The notes beneath the pieces are model-generated. The model saw only the letters and a program-made list of their open reading frames with translations, made no database searches and had not been told where the DNA came from. The position numbers were made by a program, and so were the translations under genes. A stretch of DNA of 11,421 nucleotides from Desulfobacterales bacterium (GTDB lineage: Bacteria > Desulfobacterota > Desulfobacteria > Desulfobacterales > UBA5616): positions 1-11,421 of the forward strand of contig JAWODC010000008.1 of the NCBI GenBank assembly GCA_046483495.1. The letters run 5' to 3'. Shown here in pieces: positions 1 through 11,421 of the stretch. Positions within the stretch are counted from its first letter, which is position 1; the number at the start of each line of letters is the position of its first letter.

Positions 1-1
1 C

Positions 2-523
2 AGGGATACTTCTGCCGCTATCCGTGGAATTTGGCATTCACCCAAGAGTTTAAAAGCCTGGGAGGGTTTAGGTGTCGCAGCCTTAAGTTGGGCCGCAGTT
101 GGAGATTGGATCAAGGCTGGTAAAAATATTTCTAAAGTTGATGATGTCCTAAAGGAAACTTCCGGTCAAACTAAAAAGGCTACAAATAACGCAGGCATTC
201 AAAATTATTATCCTGAAAACAATGGATTCTTAGGTGTTACAGAAAAAAAATTCTTGATGGAAGGAGATAAAATAGATCGATTCGGCGGTAGCGACTACTC
301 ACGATTTTTTTCGCCGGAAGGTACACCAGGATGGGCTCGTTCGCTTCCATCAGGAAGCGAAAATCAACCCTTGAGAACTTTTGAAGTTTTGAAGCCTTTT
401 GAGGTTGAAAAGGGAACCGTTGCCCCAGCTTTTGGAAAGCTTGGATTAGGTATTCAATATAAATCACCAGTTAAAATGAAAACCCTTATTGACCGAGACA
501 TAATTCGTGAGATAACGCCGTAG
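2..523 (+). CDS. Polymorphic toxin, 3' part (5'-truncated by the window), with C-terminal TNT/DUF4237 NAD+ glycohydrolase domain
   Basis: The frame is open from base 2 to TAG 521-523, longer than the listed 254..523 ORF. TNT motifs: YPENNGFLG, GDKIDRFG, FFSPEGTP, RSLP, FEVLKPFEV, VAPAFG...GIQY. The upstream segment (RD...WEGLGVAALSWAAVGDWIKAGK) resembles a pre-toxin TG-type linker. The region is AT-rich. Confidence 0.9.
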   Translation, partial: RDTSAAIRGIWHSPKSLKAWEGLGVAALSWAAVGDWIKAGKNISKVDDVLKETSGQTKKATNNAGIQNYYPENNGFLGVTEKKFLMEGDKIDRFGGSDYSRFFSPEGTPGWARSLPSGSENQPLRTFEVLKPFEVEKGTVAPAFGKLGLGIQYKSPVKMKTLIDRDIIREITP

Positions 524-532
524 GAATTACCT

Positions 533-715
533 ATGAATGGAGAACACAAAAAATTGAAAGATTGGGTGTTCGAAATAGATGAGATATCTGCAAATGTTTA
601 CAGAATAAGAGGGGTTGATAAAAAAGGAAGGAGCATTGAAAGAACTGGAAGTGATTTAGAAACCCTGCTAAAAAAATGTGAAGCTGATGCAAAGAACCTG
701 GATAGAATGGGATAA
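533..715 (+). CDS. Putative cognate immunity protein (60 aa, family not recognised)
   Basis: Starts 9 nt after the toxin stop. An AGGA SD overlaps the toxin stop codon. Same strand and similar AT-rich composition. The function is inferred from position only. Confidence 0.65.
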   Translation: MNGEHKKLKDWVFEIDEISANVYRIRGVDKKGRSIERTGSDLETLLKKCEADAKNLDRMG

Positions 716-728
716 AGCTTGTCCCCGT

Positions 729-827
729 GGGTTTGGGCATTTGTGCAGGGACGTGGAGGTGTACGGCTCTTACTTCGATTTCGAGGGTGCGGAGATCGAA
801 TACCAGAGCCACAACGTCAAGTCGTGA
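729..827 (+). pseudogene. Possible 3' remnant of an unidentified gene (…DVEVYGSYFDFEGAEIEYQSHNVKS*)
   Basis: Coding-like, GC3-rich codons end at TGA 825-827 with no start. A degenerate homologue (EIGYRSHNVT) lies at about 3468-3497. Confidence 0.3.
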
Positions 828-1123
828 TTCCGGATTAAGTTCCAGGAGTCATTATTGACAGCGGGGAAAAGGGGAAGAAAATTTTTCCCCCTTTCTCACT
901 TAAGGCTTCGCTCCTCATCCCTTAATCACCGGCCGCTTTCATCTTCAAATCCCTTGAACGGTCCGCTTAATGATATTGTCCTGTGTTTTTCGGCTGATGT
1001 CCACGAAATAGGCGCTGTACCCCGCCACCCGGACGATCACCTCCGAGTATTTTTCCGGGCCTTTTTGTGCGGCCCGGAGCGTTTCGTCGGAAACCATGTT
1101 GAACTGGACGTGGTCCAATCCCA
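776..1123. repeat. Direct repeat copy 1: assA 3' end plus downstream region (partner about 3450-3797)
   Basis: 945-1123 aligns without gaps to 3619-3797 with 9 mismatches in 179 nt. 776-944 is clearly but more weakly similar to 3450-3618 (shared GGAGATCG, AGCCACAA, GATTCCGGATTAAGTT, AAAAGGGGAAG, CCCCTTTCTCAC). Confidence 0.95.
866..895 (-). terminator. Intrinsic (probably bidirectional) terminator downstream of the assA C-terminal module
   Basis: GAAAAGGGGAA-loop-TTCCCCCTTTC imperfect hairpin, homologous to 3545-3571. Confidence 0.6.
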
Positions 1124-1124
1124 T
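945..1124 (-). CDS. Stand-alone glycyl-radical domain of AssA (59 aa): GrcA-like mini-protein or truncated assA paralog
   Basis: ATG at 1124 gives MGLDHVQFNMVSDETLRAAQKGPEKYSEVIVRVAGYSAYFVDISRKTQDNIIKRTVQGI*. The RVAGY radical motif is intact. The first 36 aa of the listed 95-aa ORF are mostly IS-end sequence. Homology to assA is certain; expression is not. Confidence 0.6.
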   Translation of the reverse strand: MGLDHVQFNMVSDETLRAAQKGPEKYSEVIVRVAGYSAYFVDISRKTQDNIIKRTVQGI

Positions 1125-1251
1125 AGATAAACCTGTGTTCGACAGTGATAGGCATGTTTTCACGAAAATTACGTTATAAGCCCTTGAAATCACGTGTCCC
1201 GGTCTCTTCTGAGGTTCAAAAGTAATAGGCACACGTATTATTATATTAACC

Positions 1252-1281
1252 TTGACATGGAATTTAATACATGCTTAATAG
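1252..1281 (+). promoter_or_regulatory. Candidate sigma70 promoter for the transposase
   Basis: Perfect TTGACA at 1252-1257. Only a weak AT-rich -10 (TTAATA/TAATAG, about 1275-1281) just before the ATG at 1288. Confidence 0.4.
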
Positions 1282-1287
1282 ATAGGC

Positions 1288-2922
1288 ATGTACATACGAA
1301 CCATCAAACGCAAAAATAAAGACGGCTCCGTGGTAGAATACGTCCAACTGGCCCATAATGTCTGGAACAAGGAAAAAGGCTTTGCACAAGCCCAAGTAAT
1401 CCATTCGTTCGGTCGGCGCGAAGAGTTGGACATCGATGCACTGAAGCGGCTTATTAAAAGCGTCAGCCGATTTTTGGATCCCGAGGATGCCATTAGACTG
1501 GAGCATCAGAGCGAGGACCTCAAGTTTGTCAGTTCCCGTCCGGCCGGGGGCGCCTATCTGTTAAGGGCGCTGTGGGATCAGCTTCATCTTGAAAAATGCA
1601 TTGAGAAAGCACTCCATCAGAGATCTTTTACGTCGCCCATTTCGGATGCCCTTTTTGCGATGGTGGCCAATCGGGCCCTTGCGCCTTCCTCTAAACTGGC
1701 TATTGAACAATGGGCCGGCGAAGAAGTCTATCTGGGCAATGAACAGCCGCTTCAGGTTCAGCATTGTTACCGGGCCATGGATTTTCTGCTGGAGCATGCC
1801 GAGACGGTTCAAAAAGAAGTCTTCTGGTCTACGGCGAGTTTATTGAACTTAACCGTGGATTTGATCTTTTTCGATACGACCAACACCTATTTCGAGATTG
1901 AAGAGCCCGGACCGTCGGAACTCAAGTCCTACGGTAAATCCAAACACAAGCGCGACGATGTGCCCCAGGTGACCATCGGTCTTGCTGTCACCCGCGAAGG
2001 CATACCCGTCCGATGCTGGATTCTGCCGGGCAATCAGCACGACTCCAAATGCGTGGATCAGGTTCAAAAAGATCTTAACAGCTGGAACCTGGGACGCGTG
2101 GTCTGGGTCATGGACCGCGGGATGAGCAGCGAAGAGAACCAGAAAATTCTGCAGCGTGCCGGCGGCCAATACATCCTGGGCGAGAAGCTTCGGGGCAACC
2201 ACCTCAATGAAGCAGCCTTGGCTCATCCGGGCCGCTTCAAGGTCCTTGCAGACAACCTGCACATCAAAGAAGTCTTTGCCGGTGAAGATACAGGCCGTCG
2301 CCGCTACGTGATCGCCTATAATCCCGAACAGGCCGAATATGACCGCATCCATCGGGAGCAAATCCTGGATCGATTGAACTGTGAACTCAAGGTTCTCAAC
2401 AAAAAGCGCAAAACCAAAGCCCAGTGCAAGGTGATGCTGCACCAGTCGATGGGACGCTATGTCAAAGAGCTTAAAAACGGCACCCTGAAAATCGACAAGG
2501 CCAAAGTCAAGCAGGAAGAAAAGCTTGACGGAAAATATCTGCTTTCCACTTCCGATCAGCATTTGTCCGCCGAGGATATCGCTCTGGGTTACAAGCAGCT
2601 GATGGAAGTCGAACGCGCCTTTCGCACACTAAAAAGCACGCTGTGCCTTCGGCCGGTGTATCATTCCAAAGACGACCGCATCCGATCTCACGTGATGATT
2701 TGCTGGCTGGCCCTTTTGCTGGTCCGCATTGCCGAGGTGGAAACCGGACTGACTTGGCCGAAGATTCGCCGCAAAATGCAGCAACTAAATTTGATCGAAT
2801 TTTTTGACCAAAATGGGCGTATTCTACAGCACACTGAACTCACTCATGATCAACGCAATATATTGAACAAATTGAAAATAAAGCCTCCTAAGCGCGTCTT
2901 GAAAGTGGATTTGAACGCCTAA
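1288..2922 (+). CDS. IS1634-family DDE transposase (544 aa)
   Basis: N-terminus MYIRTIKRKNKDGSVVEYVQLAHN; catalytic motifs FFDTT, VMDRG, VERAFRTLK; also YGKSKHKRDD.PQV and LRPVYH...RIRSHV. Confidence 0.95.
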   Translation: MYIRTIKRKNKDGSVVEYVQLAHNVWNKEKGFAQAQVIHSFGRREELDIDALKRLIKSVSRFLDPEDAIRLEHQSEDLKFVSSRPAGGAYLLRALWDQLHLEKCIEKALHQRSFTSPISDALFAMVANRALAPSSKLAIEQWAGEEVYLGNEQPLQVQHCYRAMDFLLEHAETVQKEVFWSTASLLNLTVDLIFFDTTNTYFEIEEPGPSELKSYGKSKHKRDDVPQVTIGLAVTREGIPVRCWILPGNQHDSKCVDQVQKDLNSWNLGRVVWVMDRGMSSEENQKILQRAGGQYILGEKLRGNHLNEAALAHPGRFKVLADNLHIKEVFAGEDTGRRRYVIAYNPEQAEYDRIHREQILDRLNCELKVLNKKRKTKAQCKVMLHQSMGRYVKELKNGTLKIDKAKVKQEEKLDGKYLLSTSDQHLSAEDIALGYKQLMEVERAFRTLKSTLCLRPVYHSKDDRIRSHVMICWLALLLVRIAEVETGLTWPKIRRKMQQLNLIEFFDQNGRILQHTELTHDQRNILNKLKIKPPKRVLKVDLNA

Positions 2923-3026
2923 AACCATAGGCACTACGCTGAATTTGATTCATTTTGCAACTTCATGAAATGTATTGGTATTTGCTTTTTTGTTAACCTA
3001 TGACTGTCGAACCCATAAAAAAAAGA

Positions 3027-3223
3027 GGGACGTTCTCAATATTTAAACATTTGCATACACTCGTTCTTTGATATAAAAAAAATGCGTTATGGCAATGATC
3101 GTTCTATAAAAAAGATTTGCAATGTCTGCAAAGGCGGTTGTTCAAACATATCTTAGAGGGAAAAAGATAACCTCGGAAAATTAATTGAGTTTGGAGCAAA
3201 TGTTTAAATATTGAGAACGTCCC
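3027..3223 (+). mobile_element. MITE-like non-autonomous element with perfect 28-bp terminal inverted repeats
   Basis: GGGACGTTCTCAATATTTAAACATTTGC (3027-3054) is the exact reverse complement of 3196-3223. The interior is AT-rich and carries a degenerate HTH-like reading frame. Confidence 0.75.
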
Positions 3224-3255: not shown

Positions 3256-3313
3256 AATTGATTTGCGGTCGATCCTGACGATTTCCGAGGAATTTTAGAC
3301 ATGGGAAATAAGC

Positions 3314-3425
3314 GGGTCATTCTCAAGATTTAAACATTTGCTTCCACTCGTCTTGAATATAAACAGGGTACGGGGGGCGATATTGTCCGGGAGACAAAAA
3401 GATAATCTCAAAAAAATAACTGGAT
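3314..3425 (+). repeat. Second, degenerate and partial copy of the MITE-like element
   Basis: GGGTCATTCTCAAGATTTAAACATTTGCTTCCACTCGTCTTGAATATAAA resembles 3027-3077. AAAAAGATAATCTCAAAAAAATAACTG resembles 3161-3187. The right IR is missing. Confidence 0.7.
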
Positions 3426-3544
3426 AGCGGGTTGCACCGGTGCAGGTGGCGATTTCAATGCTGCCTGGAGATCGGCTATAGAAGCCACAATGTCACGCCG
3501 GGATTCCGGATTAAGTTGGAGGCGGCAATTCTGACAAGCAAGTA

Positions 3545-3571
3545 AAAGGGGAAGGTATTTTCTTCCCCTTT
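3545..3571 (-). terminator. Intrinsic terminator of assA (probably bidirectional)
   Basis: Perfect 10-bp stem AAAGGGGAAG / CTTCCCCTTT with a 7-nt loop, about 47 nt after the assA stop. Confidence 0.75.
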
Positions 3572-3618
3572 CTCACCTATGACTTCACTGATCTCCTAAT
3601 CGCCGGTCCCCTTCATCA

Positions 3619-6114
3619 TCAAATCCCCTGAACAGTCCGCTGAATAATATTATCCTGTGTTTTTCGGCTGATGTCCACGAAATGGGCGCTGTAACCCGCC
3701 ACCCGCACGATCACCTCCGAGTATTTTTCCGGGTCTTTTTGTGCGGCCCGGAGCGTTTCGTCGGAAACCATGTTGAACTGGACGTGGTCCAATCCCAGAT
3801 CGGCCCAGGTCTTCATGTAGGCCCGCCAGAGCTGGTAGCCTTTCTCCCCCTTGAGCTGGGTGGGGGATAATCGCTGGTTTAAGAGAAAAGCCCGTCCGTC
3901 CGTGACGTGGTCGATTTTGCCGCAGGACTTCAGCACGGCGGTGGGGCCTTTCTTGTCCAGGCCCGGTCCGGGTGATATGCCGCCGTCGTACAGGGCGTCG
4001 CCGAGACGCCGGCCGTTGGGCAGCGCGCCCACGATACTGGAGTAGTGGATATTTCCGCTTACGTTCTCCGGAAGGATCGGCCAGCTGTTGCCGCTGGGGT
4101 CCTTGAGATTCCGGGAAACCCTTGCACATTCCCTCAGGCAGCGCAGCATGATCTCATCCACGTCGTCGTCGTCGTTGCCCCATTTGGGTGCGTTGTTGAC
4201 GAAGTCGAGCCGCATCTCTTCGTACCCTTCCCAGTTGGCCTTCAGCGCTTCCATCAGCTGCGCCATGGTGTATTTCTTTTCGTCGAAAACCAGCTTTTTC
4301 ACCGCCGCCAGGCTGTCCGGGTTTTCCACCCAGGTGAACGCGGTGATCCAGGCGTTGCCCCGCTCCCCGTCGGGCCGCATCACGTCGATTCCACGTTCGA
4401 CCGCCCGTTCGGAAATGGCGGACAAAAACGGCCGCGGCGCCACATCGGACTGCACGTACCGGGCGAAGTTCACCGTCCGGGTGAGAAGGCTGAACAGCCA
4501 CTCCATCTGGGTGACCCATGCCTGAAACAGCTGCTCGAAATCGGTGAAGGCGGCGGCATCGCCCGTTTTCGGCCCCATCTGCATGTTGACGACGTGATCG
4601 TATCCGTTCCAGAGAGCGTACTCCATGATTTTGGCGCAGTTGGCCGTGGCCGAGGCCATCCGCATCGGCTGGGTTCCGTTTTTGGTGGTGGGACAGGGGG
4701 ACATGCAGGCCTGGTGCACCCAGGTCCTGGCCTCTTCCACCGGATGCCTGTGCCAGTGCATGGCATTGGCGATCAGAACCGGGTCGTTTCTCATGGCCGG
4801 ATATCCCAGACCGTGTCGAATGCATTCGAAAATCTCCCGCATGACCTCGTCCTTGACCTTGGGATGCCAACGGAATGCAAATGTGGGGTTCGGGGTCCGG
4901 ACCAGGCGTGCCGCCTGCATGAAGGCGACGGTCAGGTCGTTGCAGGCATCCGATCCGTCCGGCTTTATGCCGCCCAGTGTCCACACCCAGGTGCCGGCAA
5001 TACCCTGCAGCCCCTCCCGCCCCCACCGGGAAGCAGTCACCGATGTGGGTATATCGAAAGCCCGGATCAAAAATTCGCCGATCAGATCCATGGCCTGTTC
5101 CCGGGTCAGGTTCTTTTCGATGTTGACGTCCTTGTCGTAATAGGGCCAGTGGTAGTAATCCGGTCGTGCGGGCCAGGCCCCTTCACGCTGCTCCATCCGC
5201 GCCATCACCTGGATGAAATGATCGAACTGGAGCGACTCCTGGAAGCTCTGGGGCGGCTTGGCCGGAACGCGCTCGCAGACGGCGGCGGTGCGGAGAAGCT
5301 CTTCCTTCCGGTAGGGATCGCTTTCGAAGTTTTCGGCGATGATGCGGGCCAGCCGACTGTAGCGCCGGGCGAGCCGGATGCCTGCCTCGAGCATGATCTT
5401 CATGGCCTCCCAGTTGATGATCTTCTTGTACAGGGGCAGGATGTCCGGGCCTGCCCAGCCCTGGATTTGGTTTTCGGCGTCCTCGATCTTCTCATCGATC
5501 TCCGCGATGATATCCTCGAACCCGCGCTTTCCCGTCAAAAAGTATTCATAATTCTTGCCGGAGTAGCCGCCGATCAGACTCCCCCACGCAATGGCGCCGG
5601 AATGGAACTTGGCCATGTCCTCCGGGTCCCCCATATCCACCAGCTTTTTGATGGGATCGCCTTCGGCGTTCCAGAATTCTCCCACCTCGTTGACGATCTT
5701 CAGGGATTCGCTCAAGGGCTCGGGAAGGATCTCCGGGTAATTGTAAACCATGGCATTGGCCATTCCGCCGGCTCCGAGCCAGGCCTCAGTTGAAGGACTG
5801 GGCGTGATGGACCCCACGATCTGGGACTGATCCACGATGTAAATCCGGCCGGCATCCCACATGGCCGCGTGGATCTTCGCCACCTTCAGGCTTTCCGGTT
5901 CTCTTTTGAATTGCTTGTAAAAATCGATGCGTTGGAGAGCGGGTTCAAGATCCAGCTTTATCGGGGAAATGGGGGCGCCGCCCGTGGACCCCTTCCGCCA
6001 AACGGCCTTACGGAGGTAGTCCAGCCTTTTGGAGCGCTTCCGCTCGGCGGCCCACCACCACTGCTCGTTGCTCTCGAATTGTTCGATCTTTTTTTCAACA
6101 GACGGTTCTGCCAT
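3619..6114 (-). CDS. assA: Alkylsuccinate synthase / (1-methylalkyl)succinate synthase alpha subunit (glycyl radical fumarate-adding enzyme), 831 aa
   Basis: AssA/MasD-type motifs: QWWW.AE.KRSKRLDYLRK, EGAWPARPDYYH, GTWVWTLGG, Cys loop WVHQACMSPCP (Cys470), QPMRMASATAN, LPENVSGNIHY, and Gly loop RVAGYSAHF (Gly807). Strong SD AAAGGAGG 6 nt upstream. GC-rich. Confidence 0.93.
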   Translation of the reverse strand: MAEPSVEKKIEQFESNEQWWWAAERKRSKRLDYLRKAVWRKGSTGGAPISPIKLDLEPALQRIDFYKQFKREPESLKVAKIHAAMWDAGRIYIVDQSQIVGSITPSPSTEAWLGAGGMANAMVYNYPEILPEPLSESLKIVNEVGEFWNAEGDPIKKLVDMGDPEDMAKFHSGAIAWGSLIGGYSGKNYEYFLTGKRGFEDIIAEIDEKIEDAENQIQGWAGPDILPLYKKIINWEAMKIMLEAGIRLARRYSRLARIIAENFESDPYRKEELLRTAAVCERVPAKPPQSFQESLQFDHFIQVMARMEQREGAWPARPDYYHWPYYDKDVNIEKNLTREQAMDLIGEFLIRAFDIPTSVTASRWGREGLQGIAGTWVWTLGGIKPDGSDACNDLTVAFMQAARLVRTPNPTFAFRWHPKVKDEVMREIFECIRHGLGYPAMRNDPVLIANAMHWHRHPVEEARTWVHQACMSPCPTTKNGTQPMRMASATANCAKIMEYALWNGYDHVVNMQMGPKTGDAAAFTDFEQLFQAWVTQMEWLFSLLTRTVNFARYVQSDVAPRPFLSAISERAVERGIDVMRPDGERGNAWITAFTWVENPDSLAAVKKLVFDEKKYTMAQLMEALKANWEGYEEMRLDFVNNAPKWGNDDDDVDEIMLRCLRECARVSRNLKDPSGNSWPILPENVSGNIHYSSIVGALPNGRRLGDALYDGGISPGPGLDKKGPTAVLKSCGKIDHVTDGRAFLLNQRLSPTQLKGEKGYQLWRAYMKTWADLGLDHVQFNMVSDETLRAAQKDPEKYSEVIVRVAGYSAHFVDISRKTQDNIIQRTVQGI

Positions 6115-6993: not shown

Positions 6994-7722
6994 ATGGCTG
7001 AATTCACGACATTTACCTGGATTGCAATATTCGCAATTGGTGCAGCCATCTTTAATGGTTTAGGAATTTTTGCTGTCTACAAACATAAAGAATTTGCTCA
7101 AAAAGCTAAAGTTTATTTGATGTGTTTTGCAGCCGGTGTATTGATATCTGTACCCTTAACGTTCGCCCTGCCTAATGCTCTACAGAAAAATGCCTATGCC
7201 GGGTTCGCGGCTCTTATGGGATTTCTATTCATGTTTTTTAGTAATGAAATCATAAAAAATAAAACCAAACGGAAAACACTGGCTTTTGGCATTACCGCCG
7301 CAGAAGGGATTGGAATTCATTCTTTTATGGACGGCATTATTTATGCAGTAACTTTTAGTGCCAGCATTGCTATAGGTATTCTGTCCGGAATAGGTTTAGT
7401 GGTTCACGAGTTTGCGGAAGGAGTCGTAACCTTCTCAATCCTGATTAAAAGCGGGATTAGGGAGAAAAAGGCAGCTCTATATTCTCTATTCATAGCCTCA
7501 TTAACTACTCCTATAGCAGCTTTCATTGCTTATCCATTCGTAAACCGATTGAGCAGTTCTGTTTTAGGGATTGCTCTTGGATTTGTAGTGGGGGTTTTAA
7601 TTTATGTTTCAGCGTCACACCTTTTACCGGAAGCTCAAGAGCAGGGAAAAGAGCATTCTATTCTCGCTTTCCTGGCAGGAGTCGCCCTGGCCTTATTCAT
7701 TGTCTTTACTAAACTGGTCTAA
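6994..7722 (+). CDS. ZIP (ZupT/GufA) family divalent metal transporter
   Basis: Polytopic hydrophobic protein with FAAGVLI, TM4 HSFMDG, TM5 HEFAEG and LIYVSASHLLPEA motifs. AT-rich. Confidence 0.92.
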   Translation: MAEFTTFTWIAIFAIGAAIFNGLGIFAVYKHKEFAQKAKVYLMCFAAGVLISVPLTFALPNALQKNAYAGFAALMGFLFMFFSNEIIKNKTKRKTLAFGITAAEGIGIHSFMDGIIYAVTFSASIAIGILSGIGLVVHEFAEGVVTFSILIKSGIREKKAALYSLFIASLTTPIAAFIAYPFVNRLSSSVLGIALGFVVGVLIYVSASHLLPEAQEQGKEHSILAFLAGVALALFIVFTKLV

Positions 7723-7867
7723 CGTATTCAAATAAGGTTTAAAACCAGAAAGATACATTTGATCATCCATTCACGGGCTGATCACGACAAGGTATCTTAA
7801 AAAAGATATTTCCAATCAAGATCAAGACGGAACCTATTGGGGTCGATCCATTTTAAGGAGCATCGTC

Positions 7868-10129
7868 ATGATGTATAAAAAAGAATCCCTCCGGTATCAT
7901 CAATACCCCCGGCCGGGGAAAATTGAAGTCGTGCCCACCAAGCCCTGCCTTTCCCAATCCGATCTCAGTCTGGCTTATACGCCGGGGGTGGCCGTGCCAT
8001 GCCTCGAAATTCAACAAGAAAAGGACCGGTCCTTCGATTATACCGGCCGGGGCAACCTGGTGGCGGTCATCACCAACGGCACCGCTGTACTGGGACTGGG
8101 CAACATCGGCCCACTGGCGGCAAAGCCGGTCATGGAAGGCAAGGCGGTGCTGTTCAAACGGTTTGCCAATCTAGACGTCTTCGACATCGAGGTCAATACA
8201 GAAGACCCGGATGAGTTTATCCGGACCGTCAAGCTGCTCGAACCCACCTTCGGCGGCATCAATCTGGAAGACATCAAGGCGCCGGATTGCTTCTATATCG
8301 AAGAGCAGCTGATCCGGTACATGTCCATACCGGTTTTTCACGACGACCAGCACGGCACCGCCATCATATCGGGTGCAGCTTTGCTGAATGCCTGTTTTCT
8401 GACCGAAAGGAAAATGGCTGATCTGCGGATCGTCATCAGTGGCGCGGGGGCCGCCGCCATCGCCTGCGGCAATATGTATATCCGCCTGGGTGCCCGCCGG
8501 GAAAATATCATTTTTGCCGATTCCAAGGGGGTGATCTACAAAGGCCGGCCCCACGGCATGAATCCCTATAAGGAGGCCTTTGCCGCCGATACCCCTTTAA
8601 GGACGCTTACCGAGGCGGTCCGGGACGCGGACGTTTTGGTCGGCCTGTCGGTCAAAGGGGCTTTCACGCCGGAGATGATCGCCCGGATGACCCCTCACCC
8701 GATCATATTCGCTTTGGCCAACCCTGAACCCGAAATCGACTATGACCTGGCCAAAGAAGTGCGCCCGGACGGCATCATCGCCACCGGCCGTTCGGATTTT
8801 CCCAACCAGGTCAATAACGTCCTTGGTTTTCCATTTATTTTCCGCGGGGCACTGGATGTACGCGCCACCACCATCAATGAGGAGATGAAAACCGCTGCCG
8901 TCCGGGCCCTGGCGGAAACGGCCAGGGAAGATGTTCCCGATTCCGTGATTCGGGCCTACGGGGGGCGCCCGATCCAATTCGGCCCTGATTACATCATCCC
9001 CAAGCCCCTGGACCCGCGCATGCTGTTGAAAGTCCCCCCGGCGGTGGCGGAAGCGGCGGTAAAGAGCGGTGTCGCCCGTATGGAGCTGCCGGGCCGAACG
9101 GAATACATACAGGTGTTGGAAGCCATGCTGGGAGCGGAGCGGGAGATTATGCGCAAGATGAACACACGGGCCCAGCAAAGCCCCAAGCGGATCGTGCTGC
9201 CCGAGGGCAGAAGCCCGGTTATTATCAGGGCCGCCGTTCATGCCCGCAATGAAGGCATCGCCCATCCGATTCTGATTTGTACCCATAGTGATGAGATCTA
9301 CGGCCCGGCCCAAGAAATGCACCTCGACCTGAACGGCATCGAAGTCATCGAAAACCAGAAAAGTCCGCTGATGGACGCGTTTGTCGACAAATTGTTTAAG
9401 AAACGCTCCCGCAAGGGTTGGTCCATGGCGGAAACCCGCCGGCAGTTGCGCAGCCGATATCTCTTCGGAGCCATGATGATCAGCGAAGGGCTGGCCGACG
9501 GGCAAGTCCACGGCATCGAGTGCTATTACAATTATGCCATCCGTCCGATCGTGTGGACCATCCCCCTGAAACCCGGCATCTCGAAACTCTCAGGGCTTTA
9601 CTTGATGATCTGCCGGGACCGCTCCCTGCTGTTTGCCGATACCACCGTCAATATCCATCCCACGGCCGAAGATCTGGCGGAAATCGCCCTGCAGTCCGCG
9701 GACATGGCCCGTTTTTTCGACATCCATCCCCGGGTCGCGATGCTCTCTTTTTCAAATTTCGGGAGCACCCAACATCCGGATACGCTGCGGGTCAAGGAAG
9801 CGGTCGAAATAGTGCACGCTAAAAATCCGGATCTGGCCATCGATGGTGAAATGCAGGCCGATACCGCCGTAAACGAAGAAACGCTCATGAACGTGTATCC
9901 TTTCAACCGGCTGGGCGGGGCGGCCAATGTTTTGATCTTTCCGGAACTGGCCAGCGGCAATATCGCCTACAAGCTTTTGGAACGGCTGGGTGGCGCCAAG
10001 GCGGTCGGCCCTCTCTTGATGGGCATCAGCAAACCCTTCAACGTACTGCCGCGGGGAACGGATATGGAGAATGTGGTCAACGTTATCGGGATTACGGTGG
10101 TGCAGGCTCAGGAAATGATGGGGCGTTAG
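7868..10129 (+). CDS. maeB: NADP-dependent malic enzyme with C-terminal phosphotransacetylase-like domain
   Basis: [69 protein letters not shown], then the PTA-like region ([25 protein letters not shown]). SD AAGGAG at 7855-7860. Confidence 0.97.
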
Positions 10130-10316
10130 GATCGCTGGCTATCCTCACCAGAAAAAGCATGACGGGGACCTCCACCAGAACGCCGACAATCGTCGCCGGG
10201 ACAGCAGGAGAAGCCTGCCCGGACAGGGTGCCGGCAACGGCCGCGGCCGATTGGAAAAAATTCGAACTGCCGGCCATGCCGCCGGGTGCGGCGATTTCAT
10301 GGGGTATTTTCAACCA
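10130..10316 (-). pseudogene. acr3: 3' remnant of an Acr3 arsenite efflux permease
   Basis: [28 protein letters not shown]…[20 protein letters not shown] corresponds to the Acr3 C-terminal motifs ASNFFELAVAVA and [11 protein letters not shown]. Only about 60 codons remain, with substitutions at normally conserved sites (E to Q in NFFE). Confidence 0.85.
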
Positions 10317-10368
10317 TATTTCGATATTTCTAAAAATATAGTTGATTAATTCCGGCATATGGTATATT
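10316..10368 (+). promoter_or_regulatory. Candidate ArsR operator and arsR promoter
   Basis: Imperfect palindrome ATATTTCGATATTTCTAAAAATAT (10316-10339), TTGATT (10342-10347) and extended -10 TGgTATATT (10360-10368) ending 8 nt before ATG 10377, consistent with a leaderless mRNA. Confidence 0.5.
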
Positions 10369-10376
10369 CGTGCCTT

Positions 10377-10697
10377 ATGAAATACGAGGATAAAAGAGCG
10401 GCCGAGCTGCTGAATCAGCTCGGATATGTCACCCGGCTTAAAATAGTACGCGTGCTGGTGCGGGCCGGATTTTCCGGGATGCCGGTGGGCGAAATCCGGA
10501 AAAAGCTCGGGATTCCAAACTCCACCCTGTCTCATCATCTGAATCATTTAAAACGGGTGGGCCTGATCCGGCAGGAACGCGAAGGCACCGTTCTGAGGTG
10601 CTTTGTGGATTATGAAATAATTTTCGATATCGTCCGGTTTCTTACCGAAGAATGCTGTTCGGGGGACCCGATCAAAATAACTGAAAAGCCGGTTTAG
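10377..10697 (+). CDS. arsR: ArsR/SmtB family repressor with a C-terminal vicinal Cys pair
   Basis: [19 protein letters not shown]...[15 protein letters not shown]...GLI...REG...FLTEECC. ATG 10377 is preferred to the listed start at 10359, which overlaps the -10 box. Confidence 0.9.
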
Positions 10698-10715
10698 GGC
10701 GGATTTTTTTGGCCT

Positions 10716-10726
10716 ATATTTCTAAA
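10716..10726 (+). promoter_or_regulatory. Possible second ArsR box upstream of arsM
   Basis: ATATTTCTAAA is identical to 10324-10334 within the candidate operator. Confidence 0.35.
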
Positions 10727-10756
10727 TTACCGGCAAAACAAAAATTGGAGGATGCA

Positions 10757-11323
10757 ATGCCGTTGAAAATCGACGATCCTATTCGAAAAGCAGTCCGGGA
10801 CGTCTACGCCAGGATTGCACCATCCCAGGGTCTTCCGCCTGCAAAAGCAGAAGGCGGTTCCTGCTGCGGAATCCTGGAATCACCGCCTGAAAAAAGTGCC
10901 GCCTGCTGCACTGCCGGTCCTTCCGCCAATACCGGTTCCGGCCTTGGATGCGGCAACCCCATGGCAATCGCCTCGCTCGAGCCCGGCGAAGTCGTCGTGG
11001 ATCTTGGATGTGGAGGAGGGTTCGACTGTTTCCCGGCGGCTGAAAAGGCAGGGGCCTCGGGCAGGGTCATCGGCGTGGATATGACGCCGGATATGATAGC
11101 AAAGGCCCGGTCCAATTTGCATAAAACCGCGGCAAAGAATATTGAATTCAGGCTGGGCGAGATCGAACATCTGCCCATTGGGGATAATACTGCGGATGTC
11201 ATTATTTCAAACTGTGTGATCAATCTCGCCCCTGACAAATCGGCCGTCTACAGGGAAGCCTTCCGGGTACTGAAGCCGGGCGGAAGGATAGCCGTTGCCG
11301 ACACCGTGGCGAGGAAACCCCTA
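10757..11323 (+). pseudogene. arsM: Arsenite S-adenosylmethionine methyltransferase, apparently damaged and 3'-truncated
   Basis: Not in the ORF track because there is no stop inside the window. GGAGG SD at 10747-10751, ATG at 10757. Motifs: VRDVYARIA, two CC pairs, GLGCGNP, DLGCGGGFDCF, VIGVDMTP, EFRLGEIEHLP, DVIISNCVINL, EAFRVLKPGGR. Homology is lost after RKPL, although the frame stays open to the window end. Confidence 0.85.
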
Positions 11324-11421
11324 GCGTCACTGTCTTTCAGATGCACGGTGTGTCTGGGGATATCGAAGGTATCAATCACGGTTTCAAGGAAAAGGGAAAG
11401 TGGATTGGTCGCAAGGGTCTT
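11323..11421 (-). other. Possible fragment of an unrelated convergent gene (KTLATNPLSLFLETVIDTFDIPRHTVHLKDSDA)
   Basis: Open, protein-like minus-strand frame entering from the window edge and meeting arsM where its homology stops. Confidence 0.3.

Follow-up and report, generated by a model that had tools for sequence, protein, structure and literature searches.

The window analysed here is the whole contig C25 (11,421 nucleotides), which forms part of a 4.19-Mb assembly of a Desulfobacterales bacterium (G000). The features of its first part are as follows.

2..523, forward strand: Rhs protein truncated at the contig edge, of which the C-terminal tip with its TNT-family domain is present
533..715, forward strand: ORF of 60 residues, a probable immunity gene by its position alone
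776..944, reverse strand: copy of the DNA downstream of assA, identical to 3450-3618 in 126 of 172 columns, with a hairpin at about 866-895
945..1124, reverse strand: orphan duplicate of the assA 3' end, 59 codons long (residues 773-831), with ATG, RVAGY motif and stop, likely a decaying remnant
1127..1131: left copy of the IS1634 target-site duplication ATAAA
1131..1134, reverse strand: AGGT, a weak Shine-Dalgarno (SD)-like site in which AGG belongs to the IS end and T is the first base of the target duplication
1132..3014, forward strand: IS1634-family element with the transposase gene at 1288-2922, the right inverted repeat lacking its last 3 nt
3015..3019: right copy of the target-site duplication ATAAA
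3020..3229: miniature element of 210 bp with 34-nt inverted ends
3306..3450: degenerate element end with spacer, which nt 1-145 of contig C48 match at 96.6% identity
3619..6114, reverse strand: full-length gene of an assA/masD-type alpha subunit of 831 residues

The rest of the window (6994-11421) encodes a ZIP transporter, a malic enzyme with a phosphotransacetylase-like domain and an ArsR-type regulator. A methyltransferase-like gene starting at about 10757 is apparently out of frame and is absent from the ORF list as a single ORF. The 60-residue ORF at 533..715 has no family match in profile searches. Seven matches to the glycyl radical domain have been identified in the genome, five in long frames and two in short ones. 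The contig of the 3619-6114 assA carries no small-subunit or activase gene for it; such genes are situated on contig C56, together with a paralogue that is 84% identical to this assA.

The orphan piece reads ATG, 58 further codons and TGA, and encodes 59 residues in which the RVAGY motif and the stop are intact. It is matched by the Pfam family Gly_radical (E-value 3e-15) and is a stand-alone glycyl radical domain with an intact Gly loop. Its similarity to the resident assA forms a 210-nt direct repeat of 92% identity, which is far above chance. Ten codons differ between the two copies, namely the boundary codon (CTG in assA, ATG here), three codons that change the amino acid (D22G, H39Y and Q53K) and six synonymous ones. 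The boundary ATG could be read either as a single C to A change or as an insertion of 2 nt at the junction. Identity falls to 73% in the adjoining non-coding copy, which would be expected of a donor gene that was functional, and the divergence of the whole copy from assA and its flank ranges from 5 to 27%. The original prediction had described a 59-codon copy of the AssA C-terminus with RVAGY and stop intact and with CTG replaced by ATG exactly where the homology ends; the codon comparison bears this out and all the counts hold. It had also taken the terminator to be kept. The hairpin is indeed preserved with 11 pairs, but a terminator scan calls the assA copy alone as terminator-like and not the hairpin of the window piece.

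The 544-residue ORF of the mobile element is an IS1634 transposase (NCBIfam NF033559, 382 bits against a cut-off of 100), and the transposase model, the terminal inverted repeats and the target duplication together place the element in this family. It is present as a single copy in this assembly; in relatives, six distinct full copies of 1885-1902 bp with 5-bp duplications have been identified among 14 loci examined. The neighbouring repeated element end occurs at 13 places in the genome, in miniature elements of 200 bp and as single ends. The 34-nt inverted ends of the 210-bp element also flank a Y1 (IS200-like) transposase gene on contig C18 (G000:C18:10499-11615; Pfam Y1_Tnp), which we take to be of RAYT type.

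When the IS and one copy of the 5-bp duplication are removed, the window piece comes to lie directly behind the poly-T of the repeated element end. The occurrence of ATAAA on both sides of IS1634 means that the IS arrived after the piece already abutted this end. The SD-like AGGT at 1134-1131, situated 6 nt upstream of the ATG, takes AGG from the IS end and T from the target duplication, and is younger than the truncation. That an AGGT lies at this distance and is largely supplied by the IS had been correctly predicted, but the target duplication, the repeated element end and a second assA piece on contig C48 had been missed in that account of the junction.

This second orphan piece (C48:146-277) comprises residues 788-831 and is preceded by the first 145 nt of C48, that is, by the same element end. 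Its start lies 15 codons further on than that of the window piece; it has no ATG, lacks the HVQFN strand, carries two private amino-acid changes and has a convergent Rhs tip after it. In the final 132 nt, pairwise identity among the window piece, the C48 piece and the resident assA is 91-93%, and nothing else compared, the C56 paralogue included, exceeds 85% with any of them. A TTG within the element end is in frame with the assA piece at both junctions (window 3020-3050; G000:C48:86-160), which is probably a matter of chance (about 1 in 9).

Rhs tips, each with a probable immunity gene, are observed at window 1-715 and at G000:C48:310-6161. The two tips differ, and the 62 residues upstream of them are common to both (92%). 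The starts of C25 and C48 overlap exactly over 147 and 122 nt, which suggests either that one locus is present in two strain versions or that the modules are in tandem. Exchange of Rhs tip and immunity gene through recombination in the conserved core is described in the accessible text of PMC10539506. The Rhs-assA locus was not found in the five genomes of the same family that were searched.

These observations lead us to regard the window piece, with a probability of about 85%, as a non-functional remnant, namely the 3' end of a sister-allele assA cut at a repeated mobile-element end. It probably arrived with an exchanged Rhs toxin-tip and immunity module. Homologous recombination in the Rhs core and a non-homologous event at the element end would have brought in a donor stretch made up of an Rhs tip, an immunity gene, a terminator and the end of a convergent assA. 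Drift of the piece would have followed, and IS1634 would have inserted 2 nt upstream of its ATG. The same picture would result if a deletion had run from the element end into a second copy of assA. Truncation by the adjacent mobile elements had been offered earlier as the alternative to a function, and it agrees with the finding that the piece abuts a repeated element end just as the C48 piece does. Against a remnant speak the intact frame, start, RVAGY and stop, and a pair of proteins described below (P0003 and P0123) that share its boundary.

The two assA ends could also be attachment-site duplications, left by an integrative element that inserts at the 3' end of assA and in doing so rebuilds the gene. 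The prophage e14 leaves icd fragments in this manner, and two copies of the 3' end, both with a stop codon and both adjoining variable cargo, would fit such a process. Their boundaries are 15 codons apart, both fall at the same small element end, and no integrase-like ORF is present among the long ORFs of the window, which makes this origin very improbable. A possible integrase link through the protein cluster of the C48 piece has been discarded. The two integrases of that cluster, and an unrelated 623-residue protein met in these protein clusters, share no AssA sequence, and the integrases look like clustering noise.

An assembly or binning artefact, to which the exact overlap of the two contig starts as a strain bubble or as tandem modules would lend itself, has against it an independent sequencing run that contains 882-1032 with zero differences. 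Long target repeats are known for some members of the IS1634 family, and the direct repeat might accordingly be one of these. The present IS group makes duplications of 5 bp, which rules out a long target duplication, and a copy that is 5-27% diverged from assA and its flank argues against both explanations. Taken together we give the two of them hardly any weight.

The changes in the window piece have been compared with natural AssA tails taken from 156 loci, which were drawn from the best 80 of 141 and the best 80 of at least 118 confirmed stretches, and which gave 152 different tails that align without gaps and reach 75% identity or more. G22, Y39 and K53 each occur in none of the 152 tails; H39 and Q53 are invariant, and Met is found at the boundary codon in five. 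Other glycyl radical enzymes often have Tyr at position 39 and Lys at position 53, and these residues may accordingly be tolerated. Four of the six synonymous differences are also carried by the C48 piece, leaving three non-synonymous and one or two synonymous changes private to the window piece. The two full-length genes differ by 0:21 (non-synonymous:synonymous; Fisher p 0.004 against the window piece, the counts being small), and 60 non-independent pairs from the loci gave 51:643; under neutrality 73-77% of changes would be non-synonymous. When the C48 piece is left out, the tree places nearly all change on the fragment branch (0.061 against 0.006). Polarisation by this tree gives 3:6, with a hand-calculated Fisher p of about 0.02 against 0:21. 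Purifying selection on the window piece as a separate gene was not detected, with three private non-synonymous changes and small counts. The earlier count of six synonymous changes among nine internal differences is right, but this synonymous excess is explained by the descent of the piece from a full-length allele.

The SD energy of the window piece is -3.7 kcal/mol with the IS and 0 without it, as against -12.1 for assA. An equally good score is found at 35% of 2135 internal Met codons, and an equally poor SD at 25% of 1889 control starts, for which the best-scoring of up to three ATGs was taken. No minus-strand promoter-like site was found by a scan of 1125-2968, which is a weak test in this group. 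Four of the ten listed sequencing runs have been compared with the window. The RNA run X7 contains two contigs of 151 nt identical to 714-864 and 882-1032; they are strandless, span the hairpin and probably derive from one molecule. The same run has no near-identical piece of the full-length assA. These contigs record the presence of the allele in another data set, not its expression, and may be of DNA origin.

The recurrence of the boundary has been examined in 163 AssA C-terminal rows from the 156 loci. They comprise 119 full-length genes, 37 contig edges and seven interior rows (four orphan, three split); none of the seven starts at residue 773, in a score-ranked set that is biased against shorter pieces, and the other interior pieces bear stops or deletions. 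A further sample of 50 assA-bearing genomes, out of 54 selected (150 matches listed and 54 more), yielded ten short-frame places, of which four are contig edges, five are remnants or disrupted genes that have acquired stops, frameshifts or deletions, and one is a clean small gene. In the protein set, two related calls of 83 residues, P0003 and P0123, on contigs of 982 and 992 bp, are similar to AssA from residue 773. They have V or M at the boundary and keep D, H and Q, and neither another relative nor a source of their N-terminal 23 residues was found. The search for short ORFs with the glycyl radical domain alone, as proposed with the original prediction, has thus yielded a family in Chloroflexota, described below, and with regard to the boundary only this one pair.

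Other short tails have been observed as well. P0189, P0205 and P0206 are AssA-related tails of 61 residues with the unrelated start MFSRFY, found on 16, 2 and 2 contigs. At L208:3436-3821, on a contig with ambiguous bases, a strong RBS and an ATG precede AssA residues 740-831 in broken frames, following a full succinate-synthase-like gene of 825 residues and a small-subunit remnant, which suggests a pseudogene or a sequencing error. The genomes G463, G457, G458 and G730 have 14 to 24 matches each to succinate-synthase tails, mostly in long frames, and show large paralogue expansions with broken copies scattered among them. A literature search found no truncated assA associated with a transposase.

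The original prediction had proposed that the window piece may be a spare part for oxygen-cleaved AssA, in the manner of E. coli GrcA/YfiD. The window piece aligns with residues 70-123 of YfiD (PDB 6owr), its residue 3 corresponding to YfiD 70, and its boundary falls immediately ahead of the strand supplied by YfiD. A working or newly recruited spare part would use the IS-supplied SD, would bind oxygen-cleaved AssA and would be activated by the AssD-like activase of C56. Such a role would be served by the intact frame and Gly loop, by the coverage of the GrcA-matching region, by the same-boundary pair P0003 and P0123, and by the support for the concept in other genomes. It would also find a precedent in truncYfiD, for which the accessible text of PMC8683613 describes normal catalysis once activated. 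The window piece is about 7 residues shorter than this construct, for which that text already gives nearly fourfold lower activation and no binding measurable by calorimetry, and 16-21 residues shorter than the Chloroflexota family. Its SD is younger than the truncation, no promoter-like site lies nearby, the C48 sister piece has another boundary, and of the three changes unseen in 152 tails those at D22 and H39 are absent from the 75-80-mers of that family. We therefore consider a function of this kind improbable. The proposal is not supported for this locus, with its IS junction, younger SD, different C48 boundary and altered conserved residues, but as a concept it gains support from a conserved family next to a PerR-like gene in five Chloroflexota genomes.

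In the current analysis we have identified the following stand-alone tails in Chloroflexota.

L237:1201-1428 (G463): ORF of 75 residues, followed by a PerR-like gene on the same strand
L256:2767-3009 (G730): AssA-type ORF of 80 residues, preceded by a perR-like gene
L260:214-456 (G819): AssA-type ORF of 80 residues, preceded by a perR-like gene
L280:1685-1927 (G987): perR-linked ORF of 80 residues
L281:475-717 (G986): perR-linked ORF of 80 residues

The G463 ORF is the clean small gene mentioned above. It is 93-97% identical in protein and 75-84% in DNA to the full-length paralogues of the same genome, and compared with eight of these it has six synonymous private changes and one amino-acid change. 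MasD and BssA come nearest to a full-length member of its cluster. The adjoining regulator has PerR as its best models, below their cut-offs, and matches Pfam FUR above the cut-off.

A search of the class (401 genomes, 26 with a match) gave 13 places, which comprise the two new perR-linked 80-mers of G730 and G819, ten contig edges and one remnant. Among the 36 genomes of the order, seven have a match and six have AssA-type tails, and a perR-linked 80-mer is present in four of these six (G730, G819, G986 and G987). It is followed by a CO dehydrogenase-like gene in at least three of the four. G642 has a perR-like locus without the 80-mer, and the short frame of G985 is a contig edge. The protein set holds seven distinct 80-mers starting with MIAG, one of them on 17 contigs and another on 8, and five 75-77-mers of the MEKT type; P0224 (NCBI MGB2799554.1) is an 80-mer of the family. 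These proteins are named glycine radical domain-containing protein or benzylsuccinate synthase at source, where they are assigned to Chloroflexota, Dehalococcoidia. No further mini gene was found in a phylum-wide sample (4 of 401 genomes with a match), and no 80-mer-like interior ORF is evident in the match table for the 116 genomes of the family of G443, eight of which have a match. Viral contigs gave one weak match of 17 residues alone, and the ESM Atlas gave generic Gly_radical and GrcA3 clusters alone. In the Desulfobacterales genome, the contig C12, which carries a PerR-like gene, has no match to the glycyl radical domain.

The properties of a separate conserved gene, namely a start, an RBS and purifying selection, are all found in the Chloroflexota 75-80-mers. 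Over the last 70 codons, comparisons of the four 80-mers gave synonymous to non-synonymous counts of 11:0, 11:0, 15:0 and three times 26:1. The SD energies of the 75-80-mers range from -8.7 to -12.5. All five genomes and G642 have in common a TTGACA promoter whose -10 box is followed by a conserved AT-rich site. This site resembles a Fur/Per box; a literature search on such a box found no paper. A partner enzyme with a matching tail is present in G730, G819 and G986 (96% to full-length or long-frame genes) and in G463 (93-97%), and G987 has only a short-frame match of 100% and a full-length match of 68%. The sequence of the small protein tracks the local enzyme type, which is AssA-type in four genomes and related MasD-like in the fifth. 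The assemblies are not complete, four of the five genomes are related to one another, and the tree does not group the 75-80-mers as one clade.

The 75-80-mers begin about 13-20 residues earlier than the window piece, and residues 19-76 of the 80-mer align with positions 19-76 of the GrcA2 model, which has 80 positions. Their scores of 34-54 bits (GrcA2, 51 against 145) reach none of the GrcA-family cut-offs of 145-170, and by analogy they may at most be GrcA-like in their working, without being classed as GrcA. From these comparisons it appears fairly probable that fumarate-adding enzymes have GrcA-like spare parts in the Dehalococcoidia 75-80-mers, which are encoded in genomes carrying several succinate-synthase alpha genes and would share one operon with a PerR-like regulator, be induced under stress and rescue the oxygen-cleaved enzyme. 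Peroxide or oxygen stress would induce the 75-80-mer, which would bind the cleaved enzyme and receive the radical from the activase, and alkane activation would be restored. The stand-alone domain could also serve otherwise, for instance by holding or priming the activase.

Spare parts for glycyl radical enzymes beyond pyruvate formate-lyase are described as yet undetermined in the accessible text of a 2026 review (PMC13450708). Our literature search, within the accessible articles, found no description of one for succinate synthases. The Chloroflexota genes provide small, expressible spare-part candidates for the enzyme family responsible for the first step of anaerobic alkane degradation and, judged by their sequences, are better candidates than the window piece, which is ordinary when taken alone. 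If the proposed role is true, the 75-80-mers would explain how degraders survive oxygen pulses and would offer a route to stabilised succinate synthases as biocatalysts. The window piece serves as a caution that truncated assA tails with a start codon readily arise, and the polarisation of changes is a way to tell such debris from a selected gene.

Among known systems, the window piece resembles GrcA/YfiD and the T4 protein Y06I, the spare parts of pyruvate formate-lyase, in being a stand-alone C-terminal glycyl radical domain. It differs from GrcA/YfiD in being of AssA type and in lacking the N-terminal part, a native SD and conservation, and it reaches none of the curated cut-offs of GrcA, GrcA2 and GrcA3 (36.3/170, 46.5/145 and 49.9/158 bits). 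Its best match among solved structures (E-value 5e-25) is MasD/AssA, the alpha subunit of (1-methylalkyl)succinate synthase (MASS; PDB 9o8u; PMC12358834). The neighbouring gene of 831 residues is of this same type, whereas the window piece consists of the last 59 residues alone. According to the accessible text of PMC12358834, the glycyl radical domain of MASS is in contact with the delta and beta subunits, and these contacts are a constraint absent from the rescue of pyruvate formate-lyase. The element at 1132..3014 has the CC..GG ends and the 5-bp duplication of the IS1634 family but lacks 3 nt at its right end. The two differing Rhs tips behind a shared conserved stretch are like the displaced Rhs C-terminus and immunity modules described in the accessible text of PMC10539506, and they differ from these in that each module here would terminate, at a repeated element end, with a fragment of the convergent gene next to it.
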